A DNA stretch of 56,471 bases from positions 241,866-298,336 of the forward strand of contig JARIGK010000004.1 of assembly GCA_029288895.1 (NCBI GenBank), given 5' to 3'. Made by a program: the position numbers and the translations under genes. Positions 1 through 15,268 of this stretch are shown here, piece after piece (within the stretch, counting starts at the first letter, position 1; every line of letters begins with the position of its first letter). The DNA is from Candidatus Adlerbacteria bacterium (lineage in GTDB: Bacteria; Patescibacteriota; Minisyncoccia; Phycocordibacterales; SBAW01). The notes beneath the pieces were generated by a model. It was not told the DNA's origin. It made no database searches and worked only from the letters and a program-made list of their open reading frames with translations.

Positions 1-3000
1 GGCCTCACAATTTCTGGCGGTGCAACGACGACAGGCAATGCGTACTTCGCAGGCAACGTTGGCATTGGTACAACATCGCCGTCTCAATCACTCTCTGTTG
101 CAAGCAATGCATACTTTGCAGGAAGTGCGGGATTTGGCATTAGCACTCCTGGCGCCATTGGTGTCGGTATCGTCAATTCGGGTACCGCGTTGGTTGTGGC
201 AGGCGCTGCGGCTGGTAACGCCACAGGTATATTCCAAATTAACGGCGGCTATTCAAATTCTGTTGGGTTGCGTTTCTCACAAAACTCTGCAACCGACGCA
301 TCAATAATTAACAACCAAGCGTCAGACGGAACTATCGCAATTCAAACAAACTCACAAAATGCACTCTACATAAATAGCAGCCAACAGATAGGCATCGGTA
401 CAACCTCTCCATCGCAGATTCTTTCACTGCAGGGCAGTGAATATGTTAGCGGCACATCATTCTTTGGCGGCGCTATCACTGCGACATCAACATTTACTCT
501 TTCTGGCCTTGCAACGTTCAACGGCGGGGCAGCGCTTGCGGGGCAGAGCATCACGGGCGGCGGCCTTATCCAATCGAACAACACGAGCGGTTATCAATTT
601 GGTTCGGGCGCACCGTCGGCTTCCGTCCCAACCCTTATCCCGAACCGATCGACGACGAACGCAGGTATCGGCGCCGATACTGCAGGCGATGTCTCTATCA
701 TCACCAACAACGGCGGTGGTACGACAGAAATGCTCCGCGTCGGAGCGACGGCCTCGGTGTTCCTTAACGGCAACGTCGGCATTGGCTCAGCAGCAACGAC
801 TCCTCAGGCGCAGCTTGAATCGCGCAACGACGGAAGTGCGATGCAGGACCTTATCAATGTGCGCAACAACAATACGACACCAAACGGTACGTTAGGATCC
901 CGCATCGGCTTTGGCGTATACAGAAACGTTGATGCGTCGGCGCTGGGTGCTTCTATCGACGCGATCAATACAAGCGGCACCGCAAACGGCAATAACTCAC
1001 AGGGCGCTACACTCGTCTTCAATACCACCGCTGAAGGAAGCCAGGGCCTCCAGCAGCGTATGACGATTTTAAATACAGGCAACGTTGGCATCGGCACCTC
1101 GACTCCCTACGCAGGGCTTTCTGTATGGGGGACTGCATCAGGTAAGCTTGCAGAATTTGTAACATCAGCATCATCATCGGCACTTTCTATTTCGGCAACT
1201 GGGTTTGGCACCACAACTGTGACGGGCTTTGCGGTAAACGGCTCAGCAACATCGACATCAAACGTCGGCTTTAACCTCACTGCTGGCTGCTTCGCAATCA
1301 ACGGTTCGTGCATTGGTTCGGGTTCGGGCGCATCACTTACTGCCGCAAACACATGGACGCAGTTGCAAACATTTAGTGCAGCATTTTTGTCTCTCGCGTC
1401 GTCGACCATTGGCAACAGCAACCAGAACGGCGGCCTCACCATCAACGGTGGCGCAACAACCACGGGCAGTGCATACATTTCAGGCAGCTTGAGGATTGGT
1501 ACACAAGCCTCTGGCTCGCAACTTGGAAACAACAATAACAACACGGCAGACTCTGGCGGTACGGGTCAAGGCACGACTGCATTGAACTGGAATCAAAACT
1601 CTGCAGGGTATGTTGGTCTTTTCTACAATGCAGACACTACCGCAAACGGCAACGGCCTTATTGTTAAAGGTGCAGCAAATAGCACTAACTCGCTTCTCTC
1701 TGTCGATTTCGGTACTACGCAAGGAACTGCCGGCACATCGCTCTTTAAAGTATTTGGTAACGGCAACGTTGGTGTTGGCACATCGTCACCTGGCACACTA
1801 CTTTCTATAGGTGGTTCGGGCACCGGTGTTAACTTCATCGACAATGGCACCACAACATTTAGCGGCAAAGGCATAAACTTACAAAACGGCGGCTGCTTTT
1901 CTATCCGTGGCACCTGTGTTGGGTCGGGAAGTGGTGCGTCGCTTTCTGTTGCCAACACCTGGACTGCGCTCCAAACATTCCAGAACGCATTTATCTCGCA
2001 AGCATCGTCGACAGTCGGTTCGGGCGCACAAGCCGGCGGCCTTACCATTTCAGGCGGTGCAACAACCACCGGCAATGCGTACTTTGTGGGTAACGTTGGT
2101 GTCGGTACAAACAACCCGCAAGAGGCCATGCATGTAAAAGCATCAAGCGGTACGGTACGCAGCTTGCTTGAAAACACATCGCCAACAGGGTTTGCCGAGT
2201 TCCAAGAGAAGAGCGACACCGGCGACTTCCGCATGGGTATCAGCGGCTCATCAGGTACGCCGTTTGGCTCGAGCGGAATGGCCGGCTACTTCGACGTGGT
2301 CTCCAACGTACCGATGCTCTTTGGTACGAACAATCAGATCCGCATGACGGTAACTAACGATGGTCTTATAGGCCTCGGCACCATGACGCCGGGTTCATTT
2401 GGTAGCGGATTCACAAACAGACTTGATGTTTCTGGAACGGGAGGTGCCGTCGCTGCGTCTGTGGGCCCGACAGACGACAATGTTGGCGTCTTTAACCTCC
2501 GTTCTAACAATAAATTCTGGCAGTTCACAACACGCACAAGTGCGGAATCAAACCGCTTTGGGTTGTATTACAACAACGGCTCAACATATACGAATGAACT
2601 ATTGAGCATCGCAACGAGCGGCAACGTTGGTATCGGCACGACAACATCAAACTGGAACTTGCAGGTTGCAGGTACACGCCCGACATTTGCACTCTCAGAT
2701 ACATCAGCTGGTACAAACCTCAAACATTGGCTCTTCTCATCGATGGGAGGCAACCTCTACATCGGCACATCGACCGATGCGTATGCAACATCAAGCCCAG
2801 CGTCGTTGGCGTTGTTGGGTAACGGAAACGTCGGTATCGGTACCTCGACGCCGTGGGCAGACTTCACCGTCCAAGGCAGCGACAACGTCAACCAAATCTT
2901 TGACGTTACAACAGTTGCTGGCGCATCGGCGATGCATATTACAGCGGCAGGTAAAGTCGGCCTCGGCACTACCACATCACAGTGGAACTTGCAGGTTGCT

Positions 3001-4446
3001 GGTACGCGCCCTGTCTTTGCGTTGTCTGACTCATCTGCTGGCGCAAACAGCAAACACTGGTTGTTCTCAAGCCAGGGCGGCAACCTCTACATCGGCACAT
3101 CGACTGATGCATATGCGACATCGTCGCCTTCGAGCCTTTCGTTCTTGAACAACGGCCGCATTGGTATCGGTACTTCATCGCCAACATCGCTCTTGTCTGT
3201 CGCGGGCAATACCTACTTCGGTTCAGGTACCGCATCAACGATGACCATCCATTCCGGTATCATCAACCACTTTATCCAGTCGACAACGACGATCCCAGGA
3301 ACAGGTGTTGGTGCGTGGACAATTGCCTCATCGACAGCTGTGGGAGCAAACCCAATTTTGAGTATTAACAGTGCTGGCGGCGCAACAACAACCATCAGCT
3401 TCTTTGGTGCAACCACCACAGGTCTTACTGGCGGTGTTGGTACGCCCGTGAACGCCAGCTATCAAAACGGCCTTATCATCGGCAACGGTAAAGTGCTTTC
3501 AAGCGTTACGATTGCAAAAGGCAGCCTCTGTGTTTCAGGCGCTGGCTGGTGTACGGCATCTTCGACAGGCGGTTTCGGCGGCTCTGTCACTGCCCGCAAC
3601 TACATCACCACTGCAACGGTCGACGTCGCTGAAATGTTCCCGTCCGATATACCGCTTGATGCGGGTGACATCGTTGCAATTTCATCGACAACGGCAGCAA
3701 CATCAACGCTGACACGCGCAACACCTGCTATGAGCTCCACGCTTGTAGGTATTGTCTCAACCGACCCAGGTCTTATCTTGGGTAACGATGGCACGGCAGG
3801 GAAGTATGCAATCGCGCTCGCGGGCCGCGTACCGGTGCATGTGACGCTCGAGGGTGGCCCTATCGCGCAAGGCGACCGCATCACGCTTTCGACCACGACG
3901 CCGGGCTTTGGTATGAAGGCGGGGGCAAATGACCCAACTGTCGGCATTGCGCTCGAGCCGTTTACTTCAGCGTCCACAGGAAATAGCATCTTGGCCTTTG
4001 TTCAACTTCAAAACCCGCTCGACACGAAGTCGCTGGGCTTGGTGCAGCATGCAGCACAGATGTTTGATTCAATTGGTGCCGCCCTTGGCGAATTGGCAGA
4101 CGAGCTCTTTACGACAACAACACAAGCAACCAAATTTATCGCAGGCGAAATTGTTGCAAAAACGGCCGTCGTAGGAAAATTGTTTACACAGCATCTCTTT
4201 GCACAGCAGGCAGACGTCGGTACTGCTGATGCGCCTGCAGGCATTACACTCTACGACACCGCAACGCATGCGCCGTACTGCCTCACAATTACCAACGGCG
4301 CTCCGACTGCAGCGCCAGGCGTCTGCGGAAGTGCGCCAACACCGGCACCTGCATCAAACCCAGCACCTGCTCCGGATGCACCATCTACAGATAGTTCGAC
4401 GTCAACAGATTCGGCTACTTCGACCGATAGCGGCTCGGGCAACTAA
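1..4446 (+). CDS. giant secreted fibre-like repeat protein, 5' end cut by the window edge
   Basis: Frame 1 is open from nt 1 (GLTISGGATTTGNAYFAGNVGIGTTSP) into the listed ORF 190..4446, so the gene starts upstream. At least 10 copies of G(N/K/R)(V/I)G(I/V/L)GT(S/T)x(P/S). Gly/Ser/Thr/Asn-rich. C-terminal module VDVAEMFPS..GDIVAIS..LVGIVST..GRVPVHV..GDRITLS, then a Pro/Ser/Thr/Asp tail. Confidence 0.8.
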   Translation, partial: GLTISGGATTTGNAYFAGNVGIGTTSPSQSLSVASNAYFAGSAGFGISTPGAIGVGIVNSGTALVVAGAAAGNATGIFQINGGYSNSVGLRFSQNSATDASIINNQASDGTIAIQTNSQNALYINSSQQIGIGTTSPSQILSLQGSEYVSGTSFFGGAITATSTFTLSGLATFNGGAALAGQSITGGGLIQSNNTSGYQFGSGAPSASVPTLIPNRSTTNAGIGADTAGDVSIITNNGGGTTEMLRVGATASVFLNGNVGIGSAATTPQAQLESRNDGSAMQDLINVRNNNTTPNGTLGSRIGFGVYRNVDASALGASIDAINTSGTANGNNSQGATLVFNTTAEGSQGLQQRMTILNTGNVGIGTSTPYAGLSVWGTASGKLAEFVTSASSSALSISATGFGTTTVTGFAVNGSATSTSNVGFNLTAGCFAINGSCIGSGSGASLTAANTWTQLQTFSAAFLSLASSTIGNSNQNGGLTINGGATTTGSAYISGSLRIGTQASGSQLGNNNNNTADSGGTGQGTTALNWNQNSAGYVGLFYNADTTANGNGLIVKGAANSTNSLLSVDFGTTQGTAGTSLFKVFGNGNVGVGTSSPGTLLSIGGSGTGVNFIDNGTTTFSGKGINLQNGGCFSIRGTCVGSGSGASLSVANTWTALQTFQNAFISQASSTVGSGAQAGGLTISGGATTTGNAYFVGNVGVGTNNPQEAMHVKASSGTVRSLLENTSPTGFAEFQEKSDTGDFRMGISGSSGTPFGSSGMAGYFDVVSNVPMLFGTNNQIRMTVTNDGLIGLGTMTPGSFGSGFTNRLDVSGTGGAVAASVGPTDDNVGVFNLRSNNKFWQFTTRTSAESNRFGLYYNNGSTYTNELLSIATSGNVGIGTTTSNWNLQVAGTRPTFALSDTSAGTNLKHWLFSSMGGNLYIGTSTDAYATSSPASLALLGNGNVGIGTSTPWADFTVQGSDNVNQIFDVTTVAGASAMHITAAGKVGLGTTTSQWNLQVAGTRPVFALSDSSAGANSKHWLFSSQGGNLYIGTSTDAYATSSPSSLSFLNNGRIGIGTSSPTSLLSVAGNTYFGSGTASTMTIHSGIINHFIQSTTTIPGTGVGAWTIASSTAVGANPILSINSAGGATTTISFFGATTTGLTGGVGTPVNASYQNGLIIGNGKVLSSVTIAKGSLCVSGAGWCTASSTGGFGGSVTARNYITTATVDVAEMFPSDIPLDAGDIVAISSTTAATSTLTRATPAMSSTLVGIVSTDPGLILGNDGTAGKYAIALAGRVPVHVTLEGGPIAQGDRITLSTTTPGFGMKAGANDPTVGIALEPFTSASTGNSILAFVQLQNPLDTKSLGLVQHAAQMFDSIGAALGELADELFTTTTQATKFIAGEIVAKTAVVGKLFTQHLFAQQADVGTADAPAGITLYDTATHAPYCLTITNGAPTAAPGVCGSAPTPAPASNPAPAPDAPSTDSSTSTDSATSTDSGSGN
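1288..2109. repeat. intragenic duplication, two 72-aa units 606 nt apart
   Basis: Units at 1288..1503 and 1894..2109: CF(A/S)I.G.C(I/V)GSGSGASL..ANTWT.LQTF..AF(L/I)S.ASST(I/V)G...Q.GGLTI.GGATTTG.AY. A partial third copy of the GLTISGGATTTGNAY end lies at nt 1..45. Confidence 0.85.
2620..3183. repeat. intragenic tandem duplication with a 330-nt (110-aa) period
   Basis: 2620..2853 and 2950..3183 both encode G.VG(I/L)GTTTS(N/Q)WNLQVAGTRP(T/V)FALSD.SAG.N.KHWLFSS.GGNLYIGTSTDAYATSSP.SL..L.NG..GIGTS.P. The W codons sit at 2653 and 2983. Confidence 0.9.
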
Positions 4447-5438
4447 ATAGCGTTGTATACAGTAGCCGAGAGGCTCTGGAGCACCCCGACCAAGTCATTA
4501 AAATTCGTACCCTCCGTCATCACACATATAAGGTACGGGTGCGGGTCTTTATATACGATGCCGCAGTCATGGAGTTCGCGCGTGACGATGGTACCGTTTG
4601 CGCCCTCCACTTGGCGCTCGCCAAATTTATGCGCGACAAGAACATCGCTCGGGATTGGCTGTGCGATGCCTGGGAAAGCCGTATGCGTCATCATTTCGAG
4701 CACTGCCTCTGATTGGTCGTGATCGAGATATGCAGCGTTGTAGAGCATACGCAAAATACCGCCGTAGCTTTTTGCTGACACATAATCTACCGAGCCGCCG
4801 CCTGCTGGAATTTTGACACCAAGGTCGATGAAGGTTTGATCAAGAATATCTTTGTTGATGTGGTTGCCGAGCAGGTCAGCCGCATTATTATCTGAGTCGA
4901 TGATCATGTGGTGGATCAATTCGTCTACCGTGTACGTCTTTCCAACGACAAGCGGGTCTGCCGGTTTAAAATCTTGCGTGTCAGTATAGTCTGCCGACTG
5001 TAATTGAAGTTGCGACGAGAGGATGCTCGGGTCGAGGCCGCTAATTTTGTAATACGCCATCATGAGCGGCAGCTTCATAAGCGATGCAGGTGCATAGACA
5101 TCATTTTCGTTAGCGCCTGCCCATTGTTGGCTTGTAAGGTCGCGGACGAATATAGAAACACGTTTTGCTTTGCCTTCGCGCACATACAATGCTGCGGCTG
5201 AGTCGAGCGTTGCGTCGAGTGCGTGCATACGCTCTGTGTTATCGTCGAGCGTTATGCAATCGAGCGAGCGGCTAATCAATGGGTATTGGTCGCGACATGT
5301 ATCGCGGTCGCGTTTTGCAACAACGTATGCACGCGTGCCTGTTGCTACATAGATAAAGAAGAGAATGCCTGCACCAGCAACAAAACCAACAAGAATGTAT
5401 GGCCACTGATGCTTGGTGTTGAGTAAAAACTGCTTCAT
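4443..5438 (-). CDS. membrane-anchored class A beta-lactamase-like serine hydrolase (penicillin-binding fold)
   Basis: N-terminal TM helix. SxxK motif (ASLMKLP), SDN motif (IIDSDNNAADLL) and a KTG-like HKFGE. Its stop overlaps the stop of the convergent giant ORF by 4 nt (4443..4446). Confidence 0.7.
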   Translation of the reverse strand: MKQFLLNTKHQWPYILVGFVAGAGILFFIYVATGTRAYVVAKRDRDTCRDQYPLISRSLDCITLDDNTERMHALDATLDSAAALYVREGKAKRVSIFVRDLTSQQWAGANENDVYAPASLMKLPLMMAYYKISGLDPSILSSQLQLQSADYTDTQDFKPADPLVVGKTYTVDELIHHMIIDSDNNAADLLGNHINKDILDQTFIDLGVKIPAGGGSVDYVSAKSYGGILRMLYNAAYLDHDQSEAVLEMMTHTAFPGIAQPIPSDVLVAHKFGERQVEGANGTIVTRELHDCGIVYKDPHPYLICVMTEGTNFNDLVGVLQSLSATVYNAI

Positions 5439-5446
5439 TGGTTTTC

Positions 5447-5452
5447 AATATA
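5447..5452 (-). promoter_or_regulatory. -10 box TATATT, 8 nt before ATG 5438 (leaderless type)
   Basis: The minus strand reads TATATTgaaaaccaATG. Confidence 0.45.
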
Positions 5453-5453
5453 C

Positions 5454-5459
5454 TATACT
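5454..5459 (+). promoter_or_regulatory. -10 box TATACT, 6 nt before ATG 5466 (leaderless type)
   Basis: TATACTgtgtgtATG. It shares the 27-nt divergent intergenic region with the box at 5447..5452. Confidence 0.45.
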
Positions 5460-5465
5460 GTGTGT

Positions 5466-6512
5466 ATGCGAGGTCTGCTCTCTGGAATTTTTTCAACACT
5501 ACTCGTTCTATATATATGTGTCACTGCAGCGCCAGTGCAGGCGGATGTAGCATCTACCCACTACAAAATTTTAGGGCCAACGATAAGCCCTGGCGGCACC
5601 GGGTCGTCCGCGAGCTATAAACTCTCAGGCACAGAAGGCGAAGTGGCGCATAACGGCGGCTCGTCGGCGAGTTATAAATTACAACTTGGCTTCTTCTCAT
5701 TTCCAGTGGTGACGGCGCCGGTGCTGTCGGTGCAGACAGGGAACGCCAGTGGCCGCGCGGATTTGAGTTGGTCTGCAGCCATTCCGTATCTTGGCTATAC
5801 CGTCTCTTCATATAACGTTGGCTACGCCACAGCATCGGGCGGCCCATACACATTTGTATCTGCAGGCAATGTGCTGACATACAACGTATCGTCGCTTACA
5901 AATGGTACGCCATATTACTTTGTTGTCACGGCGCTTGATAATACAAACATTACTATCGCGACGTCGAGCGAAGTAACCGCCACACCTGTAGCGCCATCGC
6001 TCACCTTTGTTGTGGATTCTGGTTCGCAGTCGCTGCCGACGTTTACGCCAGGTTCGCTCACTGCAACATCAAGTATCCTCACGGTGAAGACAACGAACCC
6101 CACAGGTTTTGTTACAACACTTTCTCGCGCAACGGTTTCAGGAACGCTGGCATTAAATACAGACAGTTCCGTCGTTATTCCAGACAAAACAGACTGGACC
6201 GCGCCAGCAGCAACAACAACAAGCGGCCCGACAACGGCATCGACAACGCAACCACTGACACTGCAGTTCCGCCTGTGGAAGGCAATGACCGATACGCCAA
6301 ACTATTCGACTGCATGGTGGGGCGCAGACGATACATCGTCTGGCGCGCTCTTTGCAGGCATCCCGTCAACAACGCAGTCGATAGCGAACCGCTCGACATC
6401 GGCACTTTCGACAACCACATTGCGCGTGTTGTATGACTTGAACGTGCCCGTAACGCAAAAGACAGGTACGTATACTGGCAGTGTTGTGTATTCGGTGACA
6501 GCGAATCCGTGA
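5466..6512 (+). CDS. secreted protein with an FN3 domain and a C-terminal WxL-like beta-sandwich domain
   Basis: Start moved to ATG 5466 (MRGLLSGIFSTLLVLYICVTAAPVQA signal peptide). FN3-like segment LSWSA..GYTVSSYNVGYA..GTPYYFVVTALD. The C-terminal ~170 aa is paralogous to the next gene (TNPTGFVTTLS / TDWTAPAA / WWG..D / GIPS / GTYTGSVVYSVTANP). Confidence 0.6.
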   Translation: MRGLLSGIFSTLLVLYICVTAAPVQADVASTHYKILGPTISPGGTGSSASYKLSGTEGEVAHNGGSSASYKLQLGFFSFPVVTAPVLSVQTGNASGRADLSWSAAIPYLGYTVSSYNVGYATASGGPYTFVSAGNVLTYNVSSLTNGTPYYFVVTALDNTNITIATSSEVTATPVAPSLTFVVDSGSQSLPTFTPGSLTATSSILTVKTTNPTGFVTTLSRATVSGTLALNTDSSVVIPDKTDWTAPAATTTSGPTTASTTQPLTLQFRLWKAMTDTPNYSTAWWGADDTSSGALFAGIPSTTQSIANRSTSALSTTTLRVLYDLNVPVTQKTGTYTGSVVYSVTANP

Positions 6513-6606
6513 TCTATATATAGAGGAGTGATGGATGGGGATAACGATAATAACCACTTGAGAAACCGTACGCTATACTTGTAAACGACAGGGAATTGAA
6601 TTTTCA

Positions 6607-7317
6607 ATGAACAACTCTTCATTTTCTTTTGTATACGCCCGCCAGATCGACATCGTCGATTTTACGAAGTCGCTCATCATTACAACCACGCTATTTATGG
6701 GCGTGATCCTTGCTATGCAGGCCTATGCAGCAACAGTGACGCTTTCTGTTATCGTGAACACCTCGCTTACCTTCAACACTGCAACCGATAACTTCACCAC
6801 TATCCAGCCAGGTACCGCAGTGTACGCAACAACGACGCTTTCGGTGCTGACGAACGACACAGCAGGATGGAACATTACGCTTTCGGGCGATCAAAAGAAC
6901 AGCCAGCCGCAAAACAACCTCCAGTTGAACGGCGCAACGTCAACGCAGATCTCCGACCAGACTGAATGGGTGCCCGCTGCGGCAACGTCAAGCGCTGGCA
7001 ATGCTGTGCGCATTAGCTCGCTTGTAAACTCAGGCAATGTGCTCGCGTTTCGTGTGATGTCTGCATCATCGACCAACGGCGCACCATTTTTGGCAACGTC
7101 GTGGTGGGGAACAGCCGATAACTATACCGACAATGCAAACACGCTCTGGGCCGGTATCCCGTCGTCAACAGTGCAGCGACGTGTCGGTAATGCAGGCTCG
7201 GGTTCGTACAGCTCAACGGCGCACTTAAACACTGTGCTTTACTACTTGAACGTTTCAGCGTCGCAGCCAACTGGTACGTACAACGCACCTATTACCTATA
7301 CCGCCACGGGCAACTAG
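6607..7317 (+). CDS. secreted WxL-like surface protein (paralog of the 5466..6512 C-terminal domain)
   Basis: Signal/anchor LIITTTLFMGVILAMQAYA. TNDTAGWNITLSGDQ resembles the D.RG..GW.L.V motif of WxL proteins. C-terminal end GTYNAPITYTATGN. Shares TEWVPAAAT, SWWGTADN and WAGIPSS with the upstream gene. Confidence 0.5.
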   Translation: MNNSSFSFVYARQIDIVDFTKSLIITTTLFMGVILAMQAYAATVTLSVIVNTSLTFNTATDNFTTIQPGTAVYATTTLSVLTNDTAGWNITLSGDQKNSQPQNNLQLNGATSTQISDQTEWVPAAATSSAGNAVRISSLVNSGNVLAFRVMSASSTNGAPFLATSWWGTADNYTDNANTLWAGIPSSTVQRRVGNAGSGSYSSTAHLNTVLYYLNVSASQPTGTYNAPITYTATGN

Positions 7318-7320
7318 CAT

Positions 7321-8232
7321 ATGGCAGCGAAACGATTTGCATACCTGACAGCTGCCGGGGTAGCGACAGCACTTTTTGCGTTCTCGGCTCTCCCCGCATT
7401 TGCTTCAACAGGTCTTTCTATCCAGCCAGTTAAGATCGACCAGACAATCAACCCAGGCGATGTGCTTGATGGCAGTATTTTGCTTGGCAATGCGAGCGAT
7501 GGCCCGGTTGATGTCGAAGTGAGCCTCCAAGACTTTGTGCCAACAGCGGGTGCCGATGGTATCCAGTTTATTGGCCGTACCGAAGGCGTTACCAGCGTTA
7601 TCGACTGGATCCATGTTGATACGAAAAATACTTTTTCGCTCAAACAGGGCGAGCAGATTAGCCTTCCGTACACCATCACTGCACCACTAAATGCTGAACC
7701 AGGCAGCCACTTAGGCGTCATTCTTTTTAAAGCAACGCCAAAAAATGCGCCGTCAGGCAGCATTAAAGTCGGTACACAAGTGGGTACGCTTGTGATGGTC
7801 GCAATCCCGGGCAACCATTTGGAAAAAGGAACCATTCTCGACTTTATGGTGCCGATGTTTTCGCAGAAGGGCCCTATACCGTTTGATATCAAATTCCAAA
7901 ATACTGGCACCGTACACTTCGAACCAAAAGGCACCATCATCATCCGCAATATGTTTGGCCAAAAAGCGGGCGAGGTGCCTGTCACGGGCCAGGTTGCACT
8001 GCCAACAAGCGTAAAAGAATTAAAGTTCTCATGGGACCCGGGCACATTTGCGCTCGGGCGCTACACTGCGTCGGCAACCATTTATGATGGCGAAGGCGAC
8101 GCACTTACATCTAAAGAAGTGTCGTTTTGGATCGTACCTATCTGGTACATACTCGGCTTCCTCGTTGTCCTTGTCCTTATCTACATGATCTTGCGCTACA
8201 TCAAGCGCCACGTCCGCCTGACCTTGCAGTAA
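7321..8232 (+). CDS. DUF916/DUF3324-like cell-surface protein with a C-terminal TM anchor
   Basis: Signal peptide ALFAFSALPAFAS. Two Ig-like halves: LSIQPVKIDQTINPGDVLDGSILLGNASDGPVDVEV..GSHLGVILFKA, and FDIKFQNTGTVHFEPKG..LGRYTASATIYD. C-terminal helix IVPIWYILGFLVVLVLIYMIL followed by RYIKRH. Confidence 0.5.
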   Translation: MAAKRFAYLTAAGVATALFAFSALPAFASTGLSIQPVKIDQTINPGDVLDGSILLGNASDGPVDVEVSLQDFVPTAGADGIQFIGRTEGVTSVIDWIHVDTKNTFSLKQGEQISLPYTITAPLNAEPGSHLGVILFKATPKNAPSGSIKVGTQVGTLVMVAIPGNHLEKGTILDFMVPMFSQKGPIPFDIKFQNTGTVHFEPKGTIIIRNMFGQKAGEVPVTGQVALPTSVKELKFSWDPGTFALGRYTASATIYDGEGDALTSKEVSFWIVPIWYILGFLVVLVLIYMILRYIKRHVRLTLQ

Positions 8233-8241
8233 AATACACTC

Positions 8242-8847
8242 ATGCAAACGATACGTGTCGGCGTCGCAGTCGTCCTTGGCGCGCTGGTCGTATGCGCAAC
8301 TATTGCTGCCTTTCGTACGCTGATACATGCGGGTGGTATTACGCCTACGCATTTGTTGGGCGCAACCGACACGCTTGCTATCTATGTCGACAATACTAGT
8401 TGCCCTGCTCCTGCGGGCCAGTCGTGCCAGACCAGCGCTAACATCTGCGGGCAGGTAAACACAGGCGTTATTTTGTGCGATGGCGTATGTTCGGCGACAA
8501 CAGCGCCTCCAGATTCACAATGTGTCGACAACAACCCGCCACCACCTAACACGGGCGGTGGAGGTGGTGGCGGGGGTGGGGGCGGAGGAGGTGGTGGAGG
8601 CGGCGGCCTCGCACTTGCGACCCCTACACCTGCGCCTCCGCCAGCATCGCAAAGTTGTACCGATCGAAAGAAAATTGGTGACTTTAACTGCAGCCAAAAA
8701 GTCGACCTCGGGGACTTTAGCATCTTGGCGTATTGGTTTAAACGTCCGCTTACCGACGCTGCAATCGCAGAGGGCGTCGACTTGAATCATGATGGGAAAG
8801 TGACCCTCGCCGACTTCAGCATACTCGCGTATTATTGGGGTAAGTAA
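8242..8847 (+). CDS. dockerin-containing protein with an N-terminal anchor/signal, a Cys-rich module and a poly-Gly linker
   Basis: Duplicated dockerin segments GDFNCSQKVDLGDFSILAYWF and VDLNHDGKVTLADFSILAYYW (calcium-loop D.N.DG.V). Eight Cys lie in CPAPAGQSCQTSANICGQVNTGVILCDGVCSATTAPPDSQC..SCTD..NC. N-terminal hydrophobic helix. Confidence 0.75.
   Translation: MQTIRVGVAVVLGALVVCATIAAFRTLIHAGGITPTHLLGATDTLAIYVDNTSCPAPAGQSCQTSANICGQVNTGVILCDGVCSATTAPPDSQCVDNNPPPPNTGGGGGGGGGGGGGGGGGGLALATPTPAPPPASQSCTDRKKIGDFNCSQKVDLGDFSILAYWFKRPLTDAAIAEGVDLNHDGKVTLADFSILAYYWGK
8554..8607. repeat. 18 consecutive Gly codons (mixed GGN)
   Basis: ggc ggt gga ggt ggt ggc ggg ggt ggg ggc gga gga ggt ggt gga ggc ggc ggc. 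The opposite strand produces a spurious poly-Pro ORF. Confidence 0.95.
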
Positions 8848-8848
8848 T

Positions 8849-9394
8849 ATGCGCGCACGAATGTTTATAGCGTCGCTTCTTGTCCTTGTGCCGACGGCTA
8901 CGCACGCGGCAACGTTGTCTGTGGCGCCAAAAGAAGTACACCTGACAGCTGGCGACACCGCATCATTTACTATCGTGCTTGAATCGGCCAACGAAATAAA
9001 TACCGTGGGTACTGCGGTGCACGTGCCTTCGGGGCTTTCGTTTGTGTCGGCAGAAGCAGGGAGTGTTATTGGCCAATGGGTAGAGCCAGCGGCATATAAC
9101 GATGCGGATCATGAGGTTGAATTTTCGGGCATAATGCCCGACGGCTGGCGCGGCAAACAAACACTAATAACGCTGCGTTTTAAAGCGACACAAAATGGTG
9201 CGTATACACTCCAGTTTGACGCGGATAAAACAGAGCTCTACAAAAATGATGGCAACGCAACGCCTGAACCTGTCACCTTTGGTACCATTGCGCGCTCGAT
9301 ACCAAGCCCTGCGCTTATGGAAGCGTTGCTGATCGTATTGGCGTTACTCTTCTTCTGGTTTATTAAGCGCCACCTTCGAGTGCAATTTATATAA
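8849..9394 (+). CDS. cohesin-domain protein with a C-terminal TM anchor
   Basis: Signal peptide, then ATLSVAPKEVHLTAGDTASFTIVLESANEINTVGTAVHVPSGLSFVS..ITLRFKATQNGAYTLQFD (cohesin-like beta-sandwich pattern). C-terminal LMEALLIVLALLFFWFIKRH. Confidence 0.65.
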   Translation: MRARMFIASLLVLVPTATHAATLSVAPKEVHLTAGDTASFTIVLESANEINTVGTAVHVPSGLSFVSAEAGSVIGQWVEPAAYNDADHEVEFSGIMPDGWRGKQTLITLRFKATQNGAYTLQFDADKTELYKNDGNATPEPVTFGTIARSIPSPALMEALLIVLALLFFWFIKRHLRVQFI

Positions 9395-9406
9395 TTGTAA
9401 TTTTTT

Positions 9407-10423
9407 ATGAAACGATTTTTTGGGATAACGTCTCTTCTTATCGCGCTTGCGCTACCGTCGCTTTCGCATGCAGCAACGCTTACCTTTGGCGGCGTCTCGA
9501 GTGCCGCCGTGGGGCAAACGATCAGCGTGCCGCTCTTGTTGTCTACCGCAGGCGCTGAGAGTGCAAACGCAGTGTCGGCGACGGTCGAATATTCGCGCGA
9601 CATGCTCACGCTCGTTTCAATTTCGAAATCAGGCAGCATTATCTCGCTGTGGCCGCAGGAGCCTTCCACAGCTGCGGGGCGCGGAGACATGGAGGGCGTC
9701 ATTTTAAACCCAGGCTGGAGTGGCACGGGCGGTGTTGTGGCAACGCTTGTCTTCCAAGTAAAGGCAGCTGGCAAAGCAACCATTGCGTTTAGTGATGCAG
9801 ATGTCTTGGCAAACGATGGCAGCGGAACATCTATTCTAAAATCCTCATCTCCAAAGACACTTACTATTACTGATGCATCCTCGGAACCTGCGCCAGTACC
9901 TACTCCTACACCAACACCTGTGCAAACAAATACGCTGCCGCCGGTGCATATCAGGTCGTCGTCGCATCCAGACCAAACCGCATGGTATGAGGAACACCAC
10001 GTTGTGTTCGACTGGACCAACGCGCAAGGCATTAGCGCCGTCCGCATTGGCTATGACAAAGAAGAAAATGGCGTGGGCACCGTCGTCTACAGTCCTGCCA
10101 TCTCGCATAAAGAAGTCGACCTCGACGATGGTGTGTGGTACTTCCATGTACAAGAAAAACAAAACGGCGCGTGGGGCGCTATCGCGACATACACGATACA
10201 TATAGGCCAAGCGCCTGCGGTCGCAACAACGACAGAACCTGTGGCAACGACAACGGAGCCTGCTCCTGCCCCAACGCAATCTTTTATCGGAGAGCTCATT
10301 GAATCTCTACAACATCACCGCGTAGCTATACTTACAGGTCTTGCACTTATCCTAGCGTTTATCCTGGGATGGATTTCGGCTCATCTGGAGATACATTGGC
10401 GGAAACGTCGTTCAAAACGATGA
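9407..10423 (+). CDS. cohesin-domain protein with a PT-linker, an SSHPDQ..WYFHV module and a C-terminal TM anchor
   Basis: ATLTFGGVSSAAVGQTISVPLLLSTAGAESANAVSATVEYSRDMLTLVSISK..VATLVFQVKAAGKATIAF (cohesin-like). PAPVPTPTPTPV linker. SSHPDQTAWYEEHHVVFDW..DDGVWYFHVQEK module. C-terminal helix ILTGLALILAFILGWISA followed by RKRRSKR. Confidence 0.65.
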   Translation: MKRFFGITSLLIALALPSLSHAATLTFGGVSSAAVGQTISVPLLLSTAGAESANAVSATVEYSRDMLTLVSISKSGSIISLWPQEPSTAAGRGDMEGVILNPGWSGTGGVVATLVFQVKAAGKATIAFSDADVLANDGSGTSILKSSSPKTLTITDASSEPAPVPTPTPTPVQTNTLPPVHIRSSSHPDQTAWYEEHHVVFDWTNAQGISAVRIGYDKEENGVGTVVYSPAISHKEVDLDDGVWYFHVQEKQNGAWGAIATYTIHIGQAPAVATTTEPVATTTEPAPAPTQSFIGELIESLQHHRVAILTGLALILAFILGWISAHLEIHWRKRRSKR

Positions 10424-10890
10424 AATATTCTCGGTACATTATCGCTTTGTGCACCCTCGCGCTCGTCGCGTACGCACTTATTCATTACTATATGGGGCAG
10501 CACAAACAAGGCCCGAATGTAAACACGAACTTGCCTATGGAAACTATCTCAATTGGAACCAACACACTGCATGTCGAAGTAGCGTCGACGGATGCAGAGC
10601 GCGAACAGGGGCTGTCGGGTCGCACATCGTTGGCCAAAGGAAGCGGTATGTTGTTTGTGTTTGAACCTTCGCGCGTCGTCGGCTTTTGGATGAAGGATAT
10701 GAACTTTGACCTCGATATGATCTTCGCGAGCGACGACGGAACGATAGTAAAAATCGATAGAGATGTACTTGCATCAAGCTACCCCGAAGTATTTCCGTCA
10801 GACATGGCCGTGCGCTATGTGCTCGAAGTCCCTCGTGGCTATGCAGCACAGGCAGGCCTTGCCGTAGGGCAGAAAATTGTGGTACAATAA
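10420..10890 (+). CDS. DUF192 family protein
   Basis: Start moved to ATG 10420 (MKYSRYIIALCTLALV). This forms an ATGA overlap with the stop of the cohesin gene (10421..10423). Motifs: REQGLSGR, GMLFVF, FWMKDMNFDLDMIF, YVLEV. Confidence 0.75.
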   Translation: MKYSRYIIALCTLALVAYALIHYYMGQHKQGPNVNTNLPMETISIGTNTLHVEVASTDAEREQGLSGRTSLAKGSGMLFVFEPSRVVGFWMKDMNFDLDMIFASDDGTIVKIDRDVLASSYPEVFPSDMAVRYVLEVPRGYAAQAGLAVGQKIVVQ

Positions 10891-10892
10891 TT

Positions 10893-11186
10893 GGAGCGCG
10901 TTGAGTAACAGCTCTTCGTTTTTTAACGAGGGGAGGAAAGTCCGAACATTCTCCTACATGTTTGTAGGATAAAAGGGTAGTGGGTAACGCCCATCATATG
11001 CTGTTTGCGGGCATAAGAGGTGCGAACAGAAACGACCCGGTTAAGTCCGGCTGAAACGGCAAAATCCTTACCTGTATGCAAGGCCGTGCTCTGTGCAAAC
11101 AGAGAGTGCCGCTCGAGCTCGCACGTAAGTGCGGGCCCAGATAAATTGTTATTCACGACAGAATTCGGCTTACAGACGCGCGCGCA
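10893..11186 (+). ncRNA. rnpB: RNase P RNA (bacterial type A-like, compact, ~290 nt)
   Basis: Universal P4 strands GGAGGAAAGTCCGAAC (10932..) and ACAGAATTCGGCTTAC (11158..11173). P1 pairing of GCGCGT (10896..10901) with ACGCGC (11176..11181). GGTAACGCC and AAGTCCGG elements lie in between. Confidence 0.85.
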
Positions 11187-11195
11187 AAACTGTGG

Positions 11196-11219
11196 ACGCC
11201 CCGCTTACAAGCGGGGCGT
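11196..11219 (+). terminator. 9-bp GC-rich hairpin after rnpB (no T-tract)
   Basis: acgccccgc-ttacaa-gcggggcgt. Confidence 0.45.
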
Positions 11220-11227
11220 TCGCTCGT

Positions 11228-11233
11228 TATACT
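11228..11233 (+). promoter_or_regulatory. -10 box TATACT, 9 nt before ATG 11243
   Basis: TATACTgatgagtatATG. Confidence 0.4.
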
Positions 11234-11242
11234 GATGAGTAT

Positions 11243-13555
11243 ATGCATCGACTACCTCTCATCACATGGGCGCGCTATATATTTGTAGCTGGATTATTTA
11301 TTGCATTAGTGGGCTTGATTCCGTCTGCGTGGTTTCCATTGCAGTTGGGCAAGCTCGCGTTATTTGCCGTCTTGGCATTTGTGGCGGGCGCATTCTTTTT
11401 TGTAGGTGGCGGGGGCGGGGGTATCGCTGGTAAACGAGGTACGTTTCTTTCCTTTGCCGTGCTCGCGCTGCCGTTTGGGTACCTCCTTTCGTACGTATTC
11501 TCGACAGATAAGAGTGTGGCGCTCTTGGGCTACTCTCTCGAGGCCGACACGGTCGCGTTTGTGACCCTAGGGTGTCTTGCGTTCCTCCTTGGTTCTTTTC
11601 TCTTCCGCCGCAGCCCATCGGTGCGCCTCCTCCTTTCATCTATCCTTGGCGCTGCTGGCATAGCGCTTGTCTTCCAAATCATTAGCATTCTGTTTGGGAC
11701 GCATGTTCTCTCGCAACTCTTTGCCGACCCATCAACAAACCTTGTTGGTAAATGGAATGATCTTGGCCTTCTTGCCGGCTTAGCGCTTATGCTGCTCACC
11801 ATTCCGTTGGCCTCAGGCACGCTCACGCCTGTGCGCCGCATTGCTGCAGCACTGGCATCGATTGTGCTTGTTGTATTTTTAGCGCTTGTACAGTTTGCAC
11901 TCGTGTGGGGCCTGTTGCTCGCATTCTTCTGTGTGCTTGCGCTTATGATGTATCTTTCGACAGAAGGTGAGTCGCGCCCAATCCCGTGGCTCCCAATCGC
12001 AGGCGCTGTCATCAGCGTGCTCTTGTTGGTGTGGGGTGCTGTTGTGCAAGGCGGGCTTACAAAAGTATTTCCTGTGTCGTCTTTGGAAGTGCGCCCGGCA
12101 ATTTCCACCACGCTTGATATCACTCGCGCATCACACGGCAGCTCAATTGAGCGCTTCCTCGTGGGTTCTGGGCCCAATACATTTGGCAGTCAGTGGTCGC
12201 TCTACCGTCCACAAGAAGTAAACCTATCGCAATTCTGGAACCTGGACTTTAACGTTGGCTACAGCACGCTCGCCACTGCGCTCGCAACCGTTGGCCTCCT
12301 TGGCGCATTGCTCTGGCTTCTGCCGCTTGTCCTCGTTCTTCTTGGTCTTGTCCGTGCCATTCGTACTCCATCGCCTGTAGCAGAAGATATGATCCTTGCA
12401 CTTTCTACAGGCTTTGGCGCTGCGTATTTGTGGATCTCGACCTTCTTCTATGTTCCGAGCCAAAATATGCTTTTGCTCGCATTTGTTTTGTCGGGTGCCG
12501 CGTTTGCATTCTCTATGCGCGGAGAAGCGTCTGCGCCGGATGTTCAGCAGACATCACATCGCATGCCGCGGCTTCTCTATATCGCGCTGTGGTGCCTGGT
12601 TGTCGTGCTGCTTGGCGTCATTGCATGGGCAGGCGGCCGCCGCTTCATGGCCGAGATGTATACCAACAAGGGCTTGGCAGCGCTTGGAGCGGGTGATGTG
12701 CCAGGAGCGCTGACGTCGGCGAACATGGCACTGTCGACGGAGCGCACAGGCGACGCATTGCAGTTTGCATCGGTCGCAGGACTTGCACAGATGCAGACAC
12801 TCATTAACGCAACATCGACCCCGTCTACACAAACGCAACAAGTATTTGCACAAACGGCACAAACGACTATTTCAATCGGGCAAGAGGCAGTCTTGAAGAA
12901 CCCGTCTGATTACCGTGCATACACACTGCTTGCTAATGTCTACAGCTTGCTTGCATCTGTTGGCGTCGATGGCGCATACGATACGGCAAAGAAGTTCTAC
13001 GCAAACGCTTCGGCACACAACCCGAGCAACCCGGCACTACCGCTGGCGCTCGCACGGCTCGAAGCAGCTCATGGCAATGAAGCTGCAACCACGGCAGCGC
13101 TCCAACAATCGCTCCAGTTAAAGAACGATTACACAGACGCGATCCTCTTTGTGGTGCAGCTTGATGTTGCGAAAAAAGATATCCCGAATGCAATTATTGC
13201 GGCAAAAGCTGCGGTGCAAAGTGCGCCCGGTGTGCCGTCAATTTGGTTTGAGTTGGGCCTTCTGTTTTACTCAAACAACGACATGAAGGATGCTGCACTT
13301 GCACTCGAACAAGCGGTGGCACTCGAGCCAAACTACGCAAATGCAAAATACTTCCTGGGCCTCTCGTACGCGAACGTAAACCGCACCGCAGATGCAATCA
13401 AGCAGTTTAAAGACTTGGCTGCGACGAACCCCGACAATCAAGAAGTACAACTTATCCTTTCGAACTTGGAGGCCGGCAAAAAACCGTTTGATGGGGCTAC
13501 TCCGCCCGTCACTAAAAACCCAGAGGATAGGCAGTCAGCGCCTATTGGCCAATAA
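11243..13555 (+). CDS. polytopic O-antigen-ligase-like membrane protein with a C-terminal TPR domain
   Basis: Start moved to ATG 11243, because the listed 11129 start overlaps rnpB. About 12 predicted TM helices. The C-terminal ~300 aa contains TPR-like repeats (ALELEPNYANAKYFLGLSYANVNRTADAIKQFKDL). Confidence 0.65.
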   Translation: MHRLPLITWARYIFVAGLFIALVGLIPSAWFPLQLGKLALFAVLAFVAGAFFFVGGGGGGIAGKRGTFLSFAVLALPFGYLLSYVFSTDKSVALLGYSLEADTVAFVTLGCLAFLLGSFLFRRSPSVRLLLSSILGAAGIALVFQIISILFGTHVLSQLFADPSTNLVGKWNDLGLLAGLALMLLTIPLASGTLTPVRRIAAALASIVLVVFLALVQFALVWGLLLAFFCVLALMMYLSTEGESRPIPWLPIAGAVISVLLLVWGAVVQGGLTKVFPVSSLEVRPAISTTLDITRASHGSSIERFLVGSGPNTFGSQWSLYRPQEVNLSQFWNLDFNVGYSTLATALATVGLLGALLWLLPLVLVLLGLVRAIRTPSPVAEDMILALSTGFGAAYLWISTFFYVPSQNMLLLAFVLSGAAFAFSMRGEASAPDVQQTSHRMPRLLYIALWCLVVVLLGVIAWAGGRRFMAEMYTNKGLAALGAGDVPGALTSANMALSTERTGDALQFASVAGLAQMQTLINATSTPSTQTQQVFAQTAQTTISIGQEAVLKNPSDYRAYTLLANVYSLLASVGVDGAYDTAKKFYANASAHNPSNPALPLALARLEAAHGNEAATTAALQQSLQLKNDYTDAILFVVQLDVAKKDIPNAIIAAKAAVQSAPGVPSIWFELGLLFYSNNDMKDAALALEQAVALEPNYANAKYFLGLSYANVNRTADAIKQFKDLAATNPDNQEVQLILSNLEAGKKPFDGATPPVTKNPEDRQSAPIGQ

Positions 13556-13570
13556 TAGTAAGATAGGGTA

Positions 13571-15241
13571 ATGGCGCGATTCTGGTCGGTATTTGGCAAA
13601 GAAGTGAGGGGTATGCACCAAGCTGCATACCTCCTTGCATTCTTCGCGTTGTGTTCGCAGCTCTTGGCGCTTGTACGCGACAGGTTGCTTGCGGCAAGCT
13701 TTGGCGCATCGCATACGCTCGACCTCTATTATGCTGCGTTCCGCATTCCAGATTTTCTTTTTGCGACGGTAGCCTCGCTCTTGTCACTCTATGCTTTATT
13801 GCCGGTCCTCACCCGGCTGGAACGCGAACACAAAGGCCTGGTTGTATCGTTCCTTGAGCAATCGCTCGTCGTGTTCTTTACAACGATGGGTGCAATCTCG
13901 TTTGTTGCGTTTATATTCGCACCGGAACTTGTGCCGCTTGTCACACCAGGTATCCATGATCCGCAGTTGATACTCTTGGCGCGCATCTTATTGCTCCAAC
14001 CGATCCTCCTTGGAGCGTCTAATATCGTGGGTGCGCTCACGCAATTGCGCCACCGTTTCTTTTTGTACTCAATCTCGCCGCTGCTCTACAACCTTGGCAT
14101 CATCATTGGTGTACTCGCACTCTACCCACGTATGGGCGTGGCAGGCCTTGGTTGGGGCGTGGTGCTTGGCGCATTCTTGCACTTCGCAATTCAAGTTCCA
14201 TTCTTTGGTATTGAACATTCAAACAAACGCTTGCCAAGCAAAACATTTTTCAAAGAGCTTGCCGCAGTGCTGGGGCTGTCTGTGCCGCGCACGCTAGGGC
14301 TCGCCGCAACGCAGATCTCACTCTTGGCGCTCGTTGCAATTGCGTCGTTTTTGGTGCCCGGCTCTATCTCTGTGTTTATGTTTGCGTACAACTTGCAGGC
14401 GGTGCCGCTTACTATCATCGGCGTGTCATATTCTGTCGCGGCATTCCCAACTTTGGCGCGCCTCCATGCCGCGGGGGACCATGGCGAGTTTGTACGCTAT
14501 ATCGAAACAGCGCTGCGCCACATTTTCTTCTGGTGCATCCCGGCAACTATTTTTGTGATTGTGCTGCGTGCGCAGCTTGTGCGCGTCATTTTAGGGGCAG
14601 GCGCTTTCGATTGGGGTGCAACACGCCTCACGGCCGCAGCCTTGGCGCTCTTTATTCTGTCGCTTGCGGCGCAGTCCATAACCTTGCTTATTGCGCGCGC
14701 ATACTATGCCGCGGGCAATACAAAAAAGCCCCTGTACTTCGGCCTCGCCGATATCTCTGTTTCAATCGTGAGCGCGATATTCTTTTTAGCGCTCTTCCAT
14801 GCAAACCCGTTTGTGCGCGCATTTCTTGAATCATTGCTACGCGTGGGCGACGTGCCAGGCACTATTGTATTGATGCTGGCACTCGCATACTGCTGTGGCG
14901 CGGTCGCAGAGTTTGTTATTGGGCTTGTCTTTTTCCTCCACGATTTCCGTATCCCGCGTTTGGCCATTTTTGAACTTATCTTCCAGAGTTTTTCTGCATC
15001 AGTTATCGGCGCCGGTGTGTCGTATTTGTTTTTAAACTACACAGGTATTGCGGGTACGATAAATAAAACAAGCATTTTGATAGGGCAGGGCGCGACTGCA
15101 GGTGTGCTTGGGCTCCTTGTTACGGCGGGGATCTTGGCACTCCTTAAAAATAGAGAGTTAGCTGAGGCAGTATCGGCATTTAAACGCCGCTTCCGCGACA
15201 CGCCTAAGGTCGCGCTCGAGACCACCGATATCTCGTCTTAA
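13571..15241 (+). CDS. murJ: lipid II flippase MurJ
   Basis: SQLLALVRDRLLAASFGASHTLDLYYAAFRIPDFLF is an MviN/MurJ N-terminal signature. About 14 TM helices. An alternative start lies at 13613. Confidence 0.85.
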   Translation: MARFWSVFGKEVRGMHQAAYLLAFFALCSQLLALVRDRLLAASFGASHTLDLYYAAFRIPDFLFATVASLLSLYALLPVLTRLEREHKGLVVSFLEQSLVVFFTTMGAISFVAFIFAPELVPLVTPGIHDPQLILLARILLLQPILLGASNIVGALTQLRHRFFLYSISPLLYNLGIIIGVLALYPRMGVAGLGWGVVLGAFLHFAIQVPFFGIEHSNKRLPSKTFFKELAAVLGLSVPRTLGLAATQISLLALVAIASFLVPGSISVFMFAYNLQAVPLTIIGVSYSVAAFPTLARLHAAGDHGEFVRYIETALRHIFFWCIPATIFVIVLRAQLVRVILGAGAFDWGATRLTAAALALFILSLAAQSITLLIARAYYAAGNTKKPLYFGLADISVSIVSAIFFLALFHANPFVRAFLESLLRVGDVPGTIVLMLALAYCCGAVAEFVIGLVFFLHDFRIPRLAIFELIFQSFSASVIGAGVSYLFLNYTGIAGTINKTSILIGQGATAGVLGLLVTAGILALLKNRELAEAVSAFKRRFRDTPKVALETTDISS

Positions 15242-15252
15242 AGGCATGAAAA

Positions 15253-15261
15253 TGCTAGACT
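15253..15261 (+). promoter_or_regulatory. extended -10 TGcTAGACT, 7 nt before GTG 15269
   Basis: TGcTAGACTcgtggttGTG. Confidence 0.45.
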
Positions 15262-15268
15262 CGTGGTT

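Follow-up and report, generated by a model that had tools for sequence, protein, structure and literature searches.

Known surface fibres and the locus

Two Pam filaments of Candidatus Mycosynbacter amalyticus, a parasite belonging to the Saccharimonadia, have been described by cryo-electron microscopy as products of donor-strand exchange that involve PamA and PamB (Troman et al., 2026, bioRxiv 10.64898/2026.03.03.709456). Besides PapD/FimC-like chaperones with a C-terminal transmembrane (TM) helix, the pam operon codes for a tip subunit and for a proposed terminator, which is RbmA-like and TM-anchored and starts with a strand; its conserved neighbours include a tail-fibre-like protein and ATP synthase, and Pam pili are reported from Saccharimonadia and Microgenomatia (10.64898/2026.03.03.709456). 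The WxL/Csc clusters of Firmicutes encode two or more proteins, small and large, that end in a WxL domain (PF13731, with a dual W-x-L motif), and WxLIP, which consists of DUF916, DUF3324, and a C-terminal TM helix; WxLIP carries a disordered hairpin that is predicted to become a strand completing the beta-sandwich of WxL (PMC10599100). The locus discussed here shares features with both systems. It is a cassette of six genes, g1 to g6, on a 56,471-nucleotide (56-kb) stretch of contig JARIGK010000004.1 from a Candidatus Adlerbacteria bacterium; this whole stretch is called the window below. Existing annotations call its genes "hypothetical" throughout.

In its proposed working the cassette resembles a Pam or chaperone-usher pilus, and in its layout a WxL cluster, yet it fails defining sequence tests of each. 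It also appears to join a pilus-like fibre to a cohesin-dockerin anchor, a combination that appears not to have been described before: a search of the literature in full text retrieved no paper linking cohesin or dockerin to donor-strand pili or to pili of the Candidate Phyla Radiation (CPR), and the Pam preprint mentions neither cohesin, dockerin and WxL nor Parcubacteria (10.64898/2026.03.03.709456). An earlier note on this DNA, made from its sequence without database searches, had suspected a CPR-like genome and knew of no described system of this kind; the origin is indeed CPR, and no published description of the combination was found.

A conserved six-gene cassette

Seven tightly packed open reading frames (ORFs) lie between 5460 and 10890, all on the + strand, as are all the features of their products given below; they encode 350, 236, 303, 201, 181, 338, and 156/173 aa. 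The first, g1 (5460, GTG, or 5466, ATG, to 6512), encodes a secreted large subunit and putative tip adhesin; g2 (6607 to 7317), a small pilin-like subunit, putatively the shaft; and g3 (7321 to 8232), a candidate membrane-anchored WxLIP/PapD-like chaperone. They are followed by g4 (8242 to 8847), for a dockerin-bearing adaptor and putative fibre terminator, g5 (8849 to 9394), for a short, TM-anchored, cohesin-like protein, g6 (9407 to 10423), for a protein in which a cohesin and a second beta domain precede a C-terminal TM helix, and g7 (10420, or 10369, to 10890), for a DUF192 protein with an N-terminal anchor. The gaps from g1 to g6 measure 94, 3, 9, 1, and 12 nt, and g6 and g7 overlap by ATGA at 10420-10423, so that the ORF map agrees with the close packing read from the sequence in the earlier note. 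The same holds for its claim that all seven products have a signal peptide or membrane anchor: a Kyte-Doolittle scan finds an N-terminal hydrophobic segment in each of them, together with a C-terminal hydrophobic helix and basic tail in g3, g5, and g6. GC content is even across the window. Scans for consensus promoters and terminators were uninformative, and the term "one operon" is therefore a statement about spacing and synteny only.

A scan of species-representative genomes yielded 46 loci, which carry the labels Paceibacterota, Kaiser-, Taylor-, Sung-, Ryan-, and Portnoybacteria, as well as unconfirmed, generic "Saccharibacteria" labels. Synteny was counted with locus-derived profiles in all frames over the 34 non-redundant related loci whose sequence continues downstream for 5 kb or more past the g3 homologue. 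A dockerin is present in 31 of these, and dockerin plus cohesin(s) occur in the same order and at fixed distances in 30/34; ORF maps and iterative searches show the g1-g2-g3 order upstream to be equally conserved. Since the order is kept in 30 of the 34 loci, the arrangement is not due to chance, and g1-g6 is a conserved six-gene cassette of Paceibacteria/Parcubacteria. The closest relative (84% identity) retains g1-g6, and more distant contigs show two pilin-like genes and g3, followed by variable partners. The whole window contains exactly one dockerin and two cohesins.

The seventh gene is a case apart. Its product is a DUF192 protein (Pfam, 105 bits), and the DUF192 gene lies elsewhere in the 84%-identical relative; g7 is for this reason not a conserved member of the cassette, which it only adjoins. 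Thus, of the seven-gene order whose conservation the earlier note had proposed to check, six genes are kept and the DUF192 gene drops out.

A membrane-anchored protein with the fold of WxLIP and of pilus chaperones

Searches with the product of g3 detect 338 relatives, which all come from CPR metagenomes and lack any Pfam annotation. An AlphaFold2 (AF2) model computed from a 46-sequence alignment (predicted local distance difference test, pLDDT, 85.7) consists of a signal helix, two beta-sandwich (Ig-like) domains, and a C-terminal TM helix (aa 274-297, nt 8140-8211), past which lies a basic tail. Its best Foldseek matches in the PDB are crystal structures of Enterococcus faecium WxLIP, 9i1y_A and 9i25_C ("bound to long WxL"), with E 4.5e-11 and TM-scores of 0.52-0.60, followed by the pilus chaperones CfaA, Caf1M, CsuC, and FimC, and by RbmA. 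Profile searches are less telling. The g3 protein has no Pfam match at E<=1 and hence none to PF06030 (DUF916, WxLIP_PGBD) or PF11797 (WxLIP_HBD); 20 of its 46 relatives match PF06030 weakly and below threshold (best E 5e-4), none of the 46 matches PF11797, and no Pam chaperone-type model of NCBIfam matched the family. The identification of g3 as a DUF916/3324-like anchor, proposed from the sequence, is thus backed by the fold, with WxLIP at the top of the Foldseek results, and not by profile thresholds.

The most conserved stretch of the g3 family, residues 71-96 (D71, F72, P74, F83, G89, V93, and W96), is also the least confident part of the model, with low-pLDDT blocks in 71-90 (63 and 59). 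It includes a conserved low-confidence hairpin at aa 72-96 (nt 7534-7608), and this segment behaves like the WxLIP hairpin that becomes ordered on WxL binding (PMC10599100). The likeness to a WxL/Csc cluster lies in the three-gene layout, in this segment, and in a g3 product with two Ig-like domains and a C-terminal TM helix that is closest to WxLIP. With Pam pili the cassette has in common the CPR setting, predicted Sec export, a TM-anchored PapD/FimC-like chaperone candidate in g3, and the lack of an usher; with chaperone-usher pili, the two-domain chaperone fold of g3. It differs from the latter in having no outer membrane and no usher, and in that its putative chaperone is membrane-anchored. 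No usher (PF00577) was found in g1-g7 or in the flanking genes (window ORFs 190 to 17056).

The cytoplasmic tails that follow the TM helices of g3 (IKRHVRL, 8212-8229) and g5 (IKRHLRV, 9365-9391) are nearly identical. This likeness may reflect the positive-inside rule only, or a shared localisation motif.

Two paralogous pilin-like proteins

The g2 protein begins with a signal peptide (aa 1-41, ending in AYA before A). Next comes ATVTLSVIVNT (aa 42-53, nt 6730-6765), a conserved N-terminal strand, and then a beta-sandwich domain that reaches the C-terminus. The AF2 monomer is of moderate quality (pLDDT 73.6) and shows residues 43-53 as coil; its Foldseek matches in the PDB are weak and not significant, the top ones being the pilins CsuE, FimA, and CfaE (E 0.03-0.1). 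The score of g2 against the NCBIfam model NF058581, "Pam pilus system pilin subunit", is 16.8 bits (E 0.0056; cut-off 55) over profile positions 4-147 of 148, and 41 of its 46 relatives match CPR_Pam_pilin_C (NCBIfam) over nearly the full profile, with a best E of 7e-7 and all below the cut-off. Ten of the weakest relatives, scanned with NCBIfam as a possible link to bona fide Pam pilins, all stayed below the Pam cut-off. When 1.84 billion representatives were searched exhaustively with the family profile, only 218 clusters came up at E<=1e-3. Among the 150 hits listed, it ends at most 4 residues from the C-terminus in all 133 whose match reaches the domain end, and among the matches listed it either makes up the protein alone (~220-240 aa) or is preceded by as much as ~3,400 aa of N-terminal sequence.

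The g1 protein has a signal peptide, no N-terminal donor-type strand, an Fn3 domain (aa 89-171; Pfam fn3, 23.6 bits, just under the gathering threshold, GA), and a C-terminal domain of the g2 type (aa ~177-349, nt ~5988-6506). The Fn3 domain was also recovered in a sequence search of PDB chains (3mpc, Fn3-like, E 1.4e-6), where nothing else of relevance was found for g1, g2, and g3 or for the g2 and g3 family profiles. Over ~185 aa, the C-terminal domains of g1 and g2 are 33% identical (E 9e-17), an alignment by which the two proteins are shown to be paralogous. In the g1 family, this C-terminal domain is conserved behind a variable N-terminus of 128-1401 aa, and the range widens to 128 to >3500 aa across relatives. 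At the mature N-terminus of g1, aa 31-80 (nt 5550-5700) hold three "S-x-S-Y-K-L" repeats (THYKILG, SASYKLSG, and SASYKLQLG), and comparable "STSFKL...G" repeats occur in the g1 orthologues of loci L015, L021, L032, L043, and L045.

This pair of proteins bears comparison with three systems. As in chaperone-usher pili, where the tip adhesin combines an N-terminal binding region with a C-terminal pilin domain and lacks a donor strand while shaft subunits carry an N-terminal donor strand, g1 would fit the tip and g2 the shaft. The link to Pam pili is the weak match of the g2 family to CPR_Pam_pilin_C, the C-terminal domain (CTD) of Pam pilins being an incomplete Ig-like domain that is completed by a donated strand. 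A Pam pilin, however, is made of a nine-strand N-terminal domain, a linker donor strand and the CTD, whereas g2 has an N-terminal strand and one domain, and in g1 the region that precedes the CTD contains no donor-type strand; moreover, the cassette is found in Paceibacteria/Parcubacteria and its pilin scores lie far below the family cut-off. Finally, the earlier note had taken g1 and g2 for WxL-type proteins. This is not supported: WxL (PF13731) has no match in g1 or g2 and a single one, at E 0.064, among the 46 g2 relatives, so that only the layout of a WxL cluster is mirrored. Besides lacking a detectable WxL domain, the cassette departs from the WxL clusters in that PF06030 and PF11797 are not matched at threshold, in the free N-terminal strand of g2, and in belonging to another phylum than Firmicutes.

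A dockerin protein and two anchored cohesins

The g4 protein starts with an N-terminal hydrophobic segment. The strand that follows, TLAIYV (aa 44-50, nt 8371-8391), is degenerate, and after it come a Cys-rich module, a linker of 18 Gly residues (nt 8554-8607, mixed GGN codons), and a dockerin (aa 146-196, nt 8677-8829). The latter scores 23.1 bits against Dockerin_1 (PF00404; GA 22.9), and 33 of 35 family members match this model (best 7.6e-12). The C-terminus of the family is a strongly conserved double Ca-loop/helix repeat (DxNxDGKVxLxDFSI...W), and its middle modules vary, with Big_6 in 27/35 members, Big_13 in 14/35, and fn3 in 7/35; in the window, their place is taken by the Cys-rich and poly-Gly segments. 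Poly-Gly is conserved across the g4 family, directly after either the N-terminal strand or the Cys module. Neither g4 nor its 35 relatives contain a glycoside hydrolase, a carbohydrate-binding module (CBM), or another catalytic domain.

The g6 protein carries a cohesin (aa 24-145, nt 9476-9841; PF00963, 32.1 bits, GA 24.1) and a TM helix at aa 303-330 (nt 10313-10396). In g5, a signal peptide and cohesin-like domain (aa ~21-148) precede a TM helix (aa 155-172, nt 9311-9364). Alone, g5 has no Pfam cohesin match, and its orthologues match weakly (18 bits); it is counted as a cohesin only because it is homologous to the g6 family, with which it shares 28% identity (g5 versus g6, BLAST E 3e-4) and to which the position-5 family aligns in hhalign with a probability of 100% and E 2.3e-42. 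Among all g5/g6-type proteins, 26 of 59 match Cohesin (best 1.8e-9) and 20 of 59 match Big_13. Judged by their sequences, the dockerin of g4 and the cohesin of g6 are genuine, and g5 is a divergent paralogue of the latter. The dockerin read from the sequence in the earlier note is accordingly upheld; of its two anchored cohesins, both are TM-anchored and g6 passes the threshold, g5 being admitted through its homology to g6. Among the profile searches that it had proposed, those for dockerin (g4) and cohesin (g6) gave scores above GA, and those for WxL, DUF916, and DUF3324 gave no match in the window proteins.

Most g6 orthologues have a conserved cytoplasmic tail past the TM helix (R-x-L-T-x-E-E-E-x-F-L ... 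E-K-x-I). In the window, g6 stops right after this helix, at the ATGA overlap with the DUF192 gene (10313-10890; compare locus L001 12061-13008). The 84%-identical relative keeps the tail and has its DUF192 gene elsewhere, which suggests a recent rearrangement that truncated g6 in the window. In another locus (L027 3243-6707), an additional dockerin-cohesin-cohesin trio lies upstream of g1, besides the usual one downstream of g3; the trio thus behaves as a duplicable module.

The dockerin of g4 is type-I-like, with two Ca-loop/helix repeats, and the cohesins are beta-sandwiches, as in known cohesin-dockerin pairs. Unlike in cellulosomes, the cohesins are single and TM-anchored instead of being strung on a multi-cohesin scaffoldin, the sole dockerin bearer is non-enzymatic, and the genes are located inside a pilus-like operon. 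Csc clusters, as Siezen and colleagues reportedly described in 2006, contain an LPXTG protein, CscD. In the cassette, the cohesin-dockerin module stands in place of CscD, which sets it further apart from WxL/Csc clusters.

Links between the two halves of the cassette

Two lines of evidence connect g4-g6 to g1-g3. The first is a short motif. At the mature N-terminus of g2, 37 of 41 family members have a conserved alternating strand with the consensus AVTLTVTV. When the 775 locus ORFs were each searched over their first 100 residues with a 10-mer profile of this strand, it was found outside g2 in 12 of 37 g4-family members versus 10 of 642 other ORFs (Fisher p 5e-11), and in the matching g4-family proteins this "TLTVTV"-type motif directly follows the signal peptide. 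It is almost confined to g2 and the position-4 proteins, being absent from g1 and long members of the g1/g2 family as well as from the exported g3, g5, and g6.

The second line comes from four loci that lack the dockerin and cohesins (L003, L020, L031, and L038). There, the position-4 protein has a g4-like N-terminal strand and a Cys/DNDGD or Ig module (BLAST against dockerin-type g4, E 1e-12 to 5e-18), and it bears a TM helix of its own, at the C-terminus in L003 and L020 and ~90-290 residues before it in L031 and L038. The alternation between split and fused forms indicates that, in the split form, a covalent membrane anchor is replaced by the pair of dockerin and TM-cohesin. The TM-bearing versions of g4 have the architecture proposed for the Pam anchor, PamR. 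PamR itself (N-terminal strand, two FnIII domains, C-terminal TM helix, RbmA-like) has no counterpart in the window, which instead encodes a dockerin protein and two TM cohesins; its function is presumably split between g4 and g5/g6. 

A proposed usher-less fibre and the alternatives to it

Taken together, g1-g6 may encode a chaperone-assisted, usher-less, Sec-exported surface fibre of the Pam/WxL/chaperone-usher type plus its cell anchor, the reading that we hold most likely, at even chances. All cassette products would be exported by Sec. The g3 protein would be held in the membrane by its C-terminal helix and chaperone g1 and g2 there, its hairpin (aa 72-96) lending a strand to their incomplete C-terminal beta-sandwich in a WxLIP/PapD-like manner. 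With an acceptor domain only, a hypervariable N-terminus, and no donor strand, g1 would sit at the tip as an adhesin; g2, having both a donor strand and an acceptor domain, would form the shaft by polymerising head-to-tail through donor-strand exchange. The donor-type N-terminal strand of g4, which comes without an acceptor domain, would make it the terminator that caps the base of the fibre, and its dockerin would plug into the membrane-anchored cohesins of g5 and g6, thereby tethering the fibre to the cell. Such a terminator would resemble FimI/PapH of chaperone-usher pili in its role (PMC12122975), but would differ from them in having no pilin domain and in being held by cohesin-dockerin rather than by an usher. 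The fibre would likely serve the attachment of an epibiont to a host cell or surface. The two display principles that the earlier note saw joined in one operon are less likely to be independent, and are probably one machine: a fibre and its anchor.

This model starts from what was observed, namely a conserved gene order, the g3 fold, the identification of the dockerin and cohesins, the paralogy of g1 with g2 and of g5 with g6, the shared N-terminal motif, and the TM-fused versions of g4. Several points weigh against it. Polymerisation, subunit order, strand donation, cohesin-dockerin binding, and all contacts between the proteins are what we infer. The g2 model is only moderate (pLDDT 73.6) and its matches to pilin folds are not significant (E 0.03-0.1), and the similarity to Pam pilins stays below the NCBIfam cut-off (16.8 versus 55 bits), with no bridging by the 10 distant relatives. 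The g3 protein also resembles RbmA, and its role could be that of an anchor instead. The strand of the window g4 is degenerate and has no score with the motif profile, the cleavage of its signal peptide is uncertain, and the resemblance between g2 and g4 strands is barely greater within a genome than in shuffled pairs (p 0.02 with BLOSUM, 0.14 with identity). Lastly, the g5 cohesin is sub-threshold.

The alternative that survives best, although we consider it unlikely, is a static surface complex similar to that of WxL clusters and devoid of any filament, in which g3 would permanently hold one g1 or g2, the dockerin/cohesin module being co-regulated but physically separate. It would account for WxLIP, including its complex with a long WxL, being the best structural match of g3; a small and a large protein with a shared C-terminal domain, accompanied by a TM protein with two Ig-like domains, is the commonest WxL layout (PMC10599100); and it does without the polymer, which we infer. 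Yet no WxL signal was obtained from Pfam, and the free N-terminal strand that g2 has in common with g4, and that g1 lacks, would be left with no role. The affinity to the filament-forming Pam pilins, together with the TM-fused versions of g4, also argues that g4 belongs to the same assembly.

Still less probable is that g5 and g6 form a general cohesin platform displaying g4 as an adhesin independently of g1-g3, the N-terminal motif then being an export or maturation signal. The variable Ig-like modules in the middle of g4 proteins are adhesin-like, and the second trio of L027 behaves as a separable unit; but the trio lies directly downstream of g3 in 30/34 loci, the 56-kb window has one dockerin only, and a general export signal is at odds with a motif restricted to g2 and the position-4 proteins among so many exported products. 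As for a miniature cellulosome, in which cohesin scaffolds would assemble dockerin-tagged polysaccharide-degrading enzymes, Dockerin_1 and Cohesin are its defining modules, but with a single cohesin per anchor protein, one dockerin gene nearby, and no enzyme or CBM domain in g4 or its 35 relatives, this highly improbable reading was rejected.

Genes around the cassette

Upstream of the cassette, 190-4446 (+) encodes a 1418-aa secreted protein that is repetitive, rich in Gly, Ser, and Thr, and tail-fibre-like, with no Pfam match; the orthologous protein of the closest relative matches C1q and Gly_rich_2 weakly, and in locus L004 a giant LVIVD-repeat protein is found in its place. A gene of the Beta-lactamase2 family (class A-like, 108.6 bits) at 4443-5438 (-) is the divergent neighbour of g1. 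Homologues are located just upstream of the cassette in ~19 related loci, often inside a conserved five-gene block.

On the other side, 11129-17056 contains cell-envelope and housekeeping genes, including those for the MurJ flippase and LepA, and is syntenic in the closest relative. One downstream product, a multi-TM protein with C-terminal TPR repeats, is possibly O-antigen-ligase-like; only TPR-type Pfam families were matched. In L004, an F-type ATP synthase operon (L004 11633-16918) directly follows the cassette. The tail-fibre-like gene upstream in the window and the ATP-synthase operon adjoining the cassette in L004 are both reminiscent of the surroundings of Pam pili.

Implications for the Paceibacteria

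The conserved gene set is well supported, and the mechanism is a testable proposal that is still unproven. A broader proposal, which we hold as somewhat more doubtful than the fibre model itself, is that a donor-strand-exchange pilus is fastened to the membrane non-covalently by cohesin-dockerin, which would add a third mode of attachment to those by ushers and by sortases, and that the Paceibacteria cassette, the Pam pili of Saccharimonadia, and the WxL/WxLIP clusters of Firmicutes are branches of one ancient family of usher-less fibres assembled by membrane chaperones in single-membrane bacteria.

The Paceibacteria (Parcubacteria) are the largest and least understood class of the CPR, and almost nothing is known of how they attach to their hosts. 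If the fibre model holds, the newly found principle of Pam-type pili would extend to this class, and Pam-type pili would be structurally tied to the WxL/WxLIP clusters of Firmicutes, a link drawn neither in the Pam preprint (10.64898/2026.03.03.709456) nor in the work on WxLIP (PMC10599100). Cohesin-dockerin pairs, which are common but unexplained outside cellulosomes, would gain a non-cellulosomal function as a pilus anchor, and the determinant of host specificity would naturally be sought in the hypervariable N-terminus of g1.

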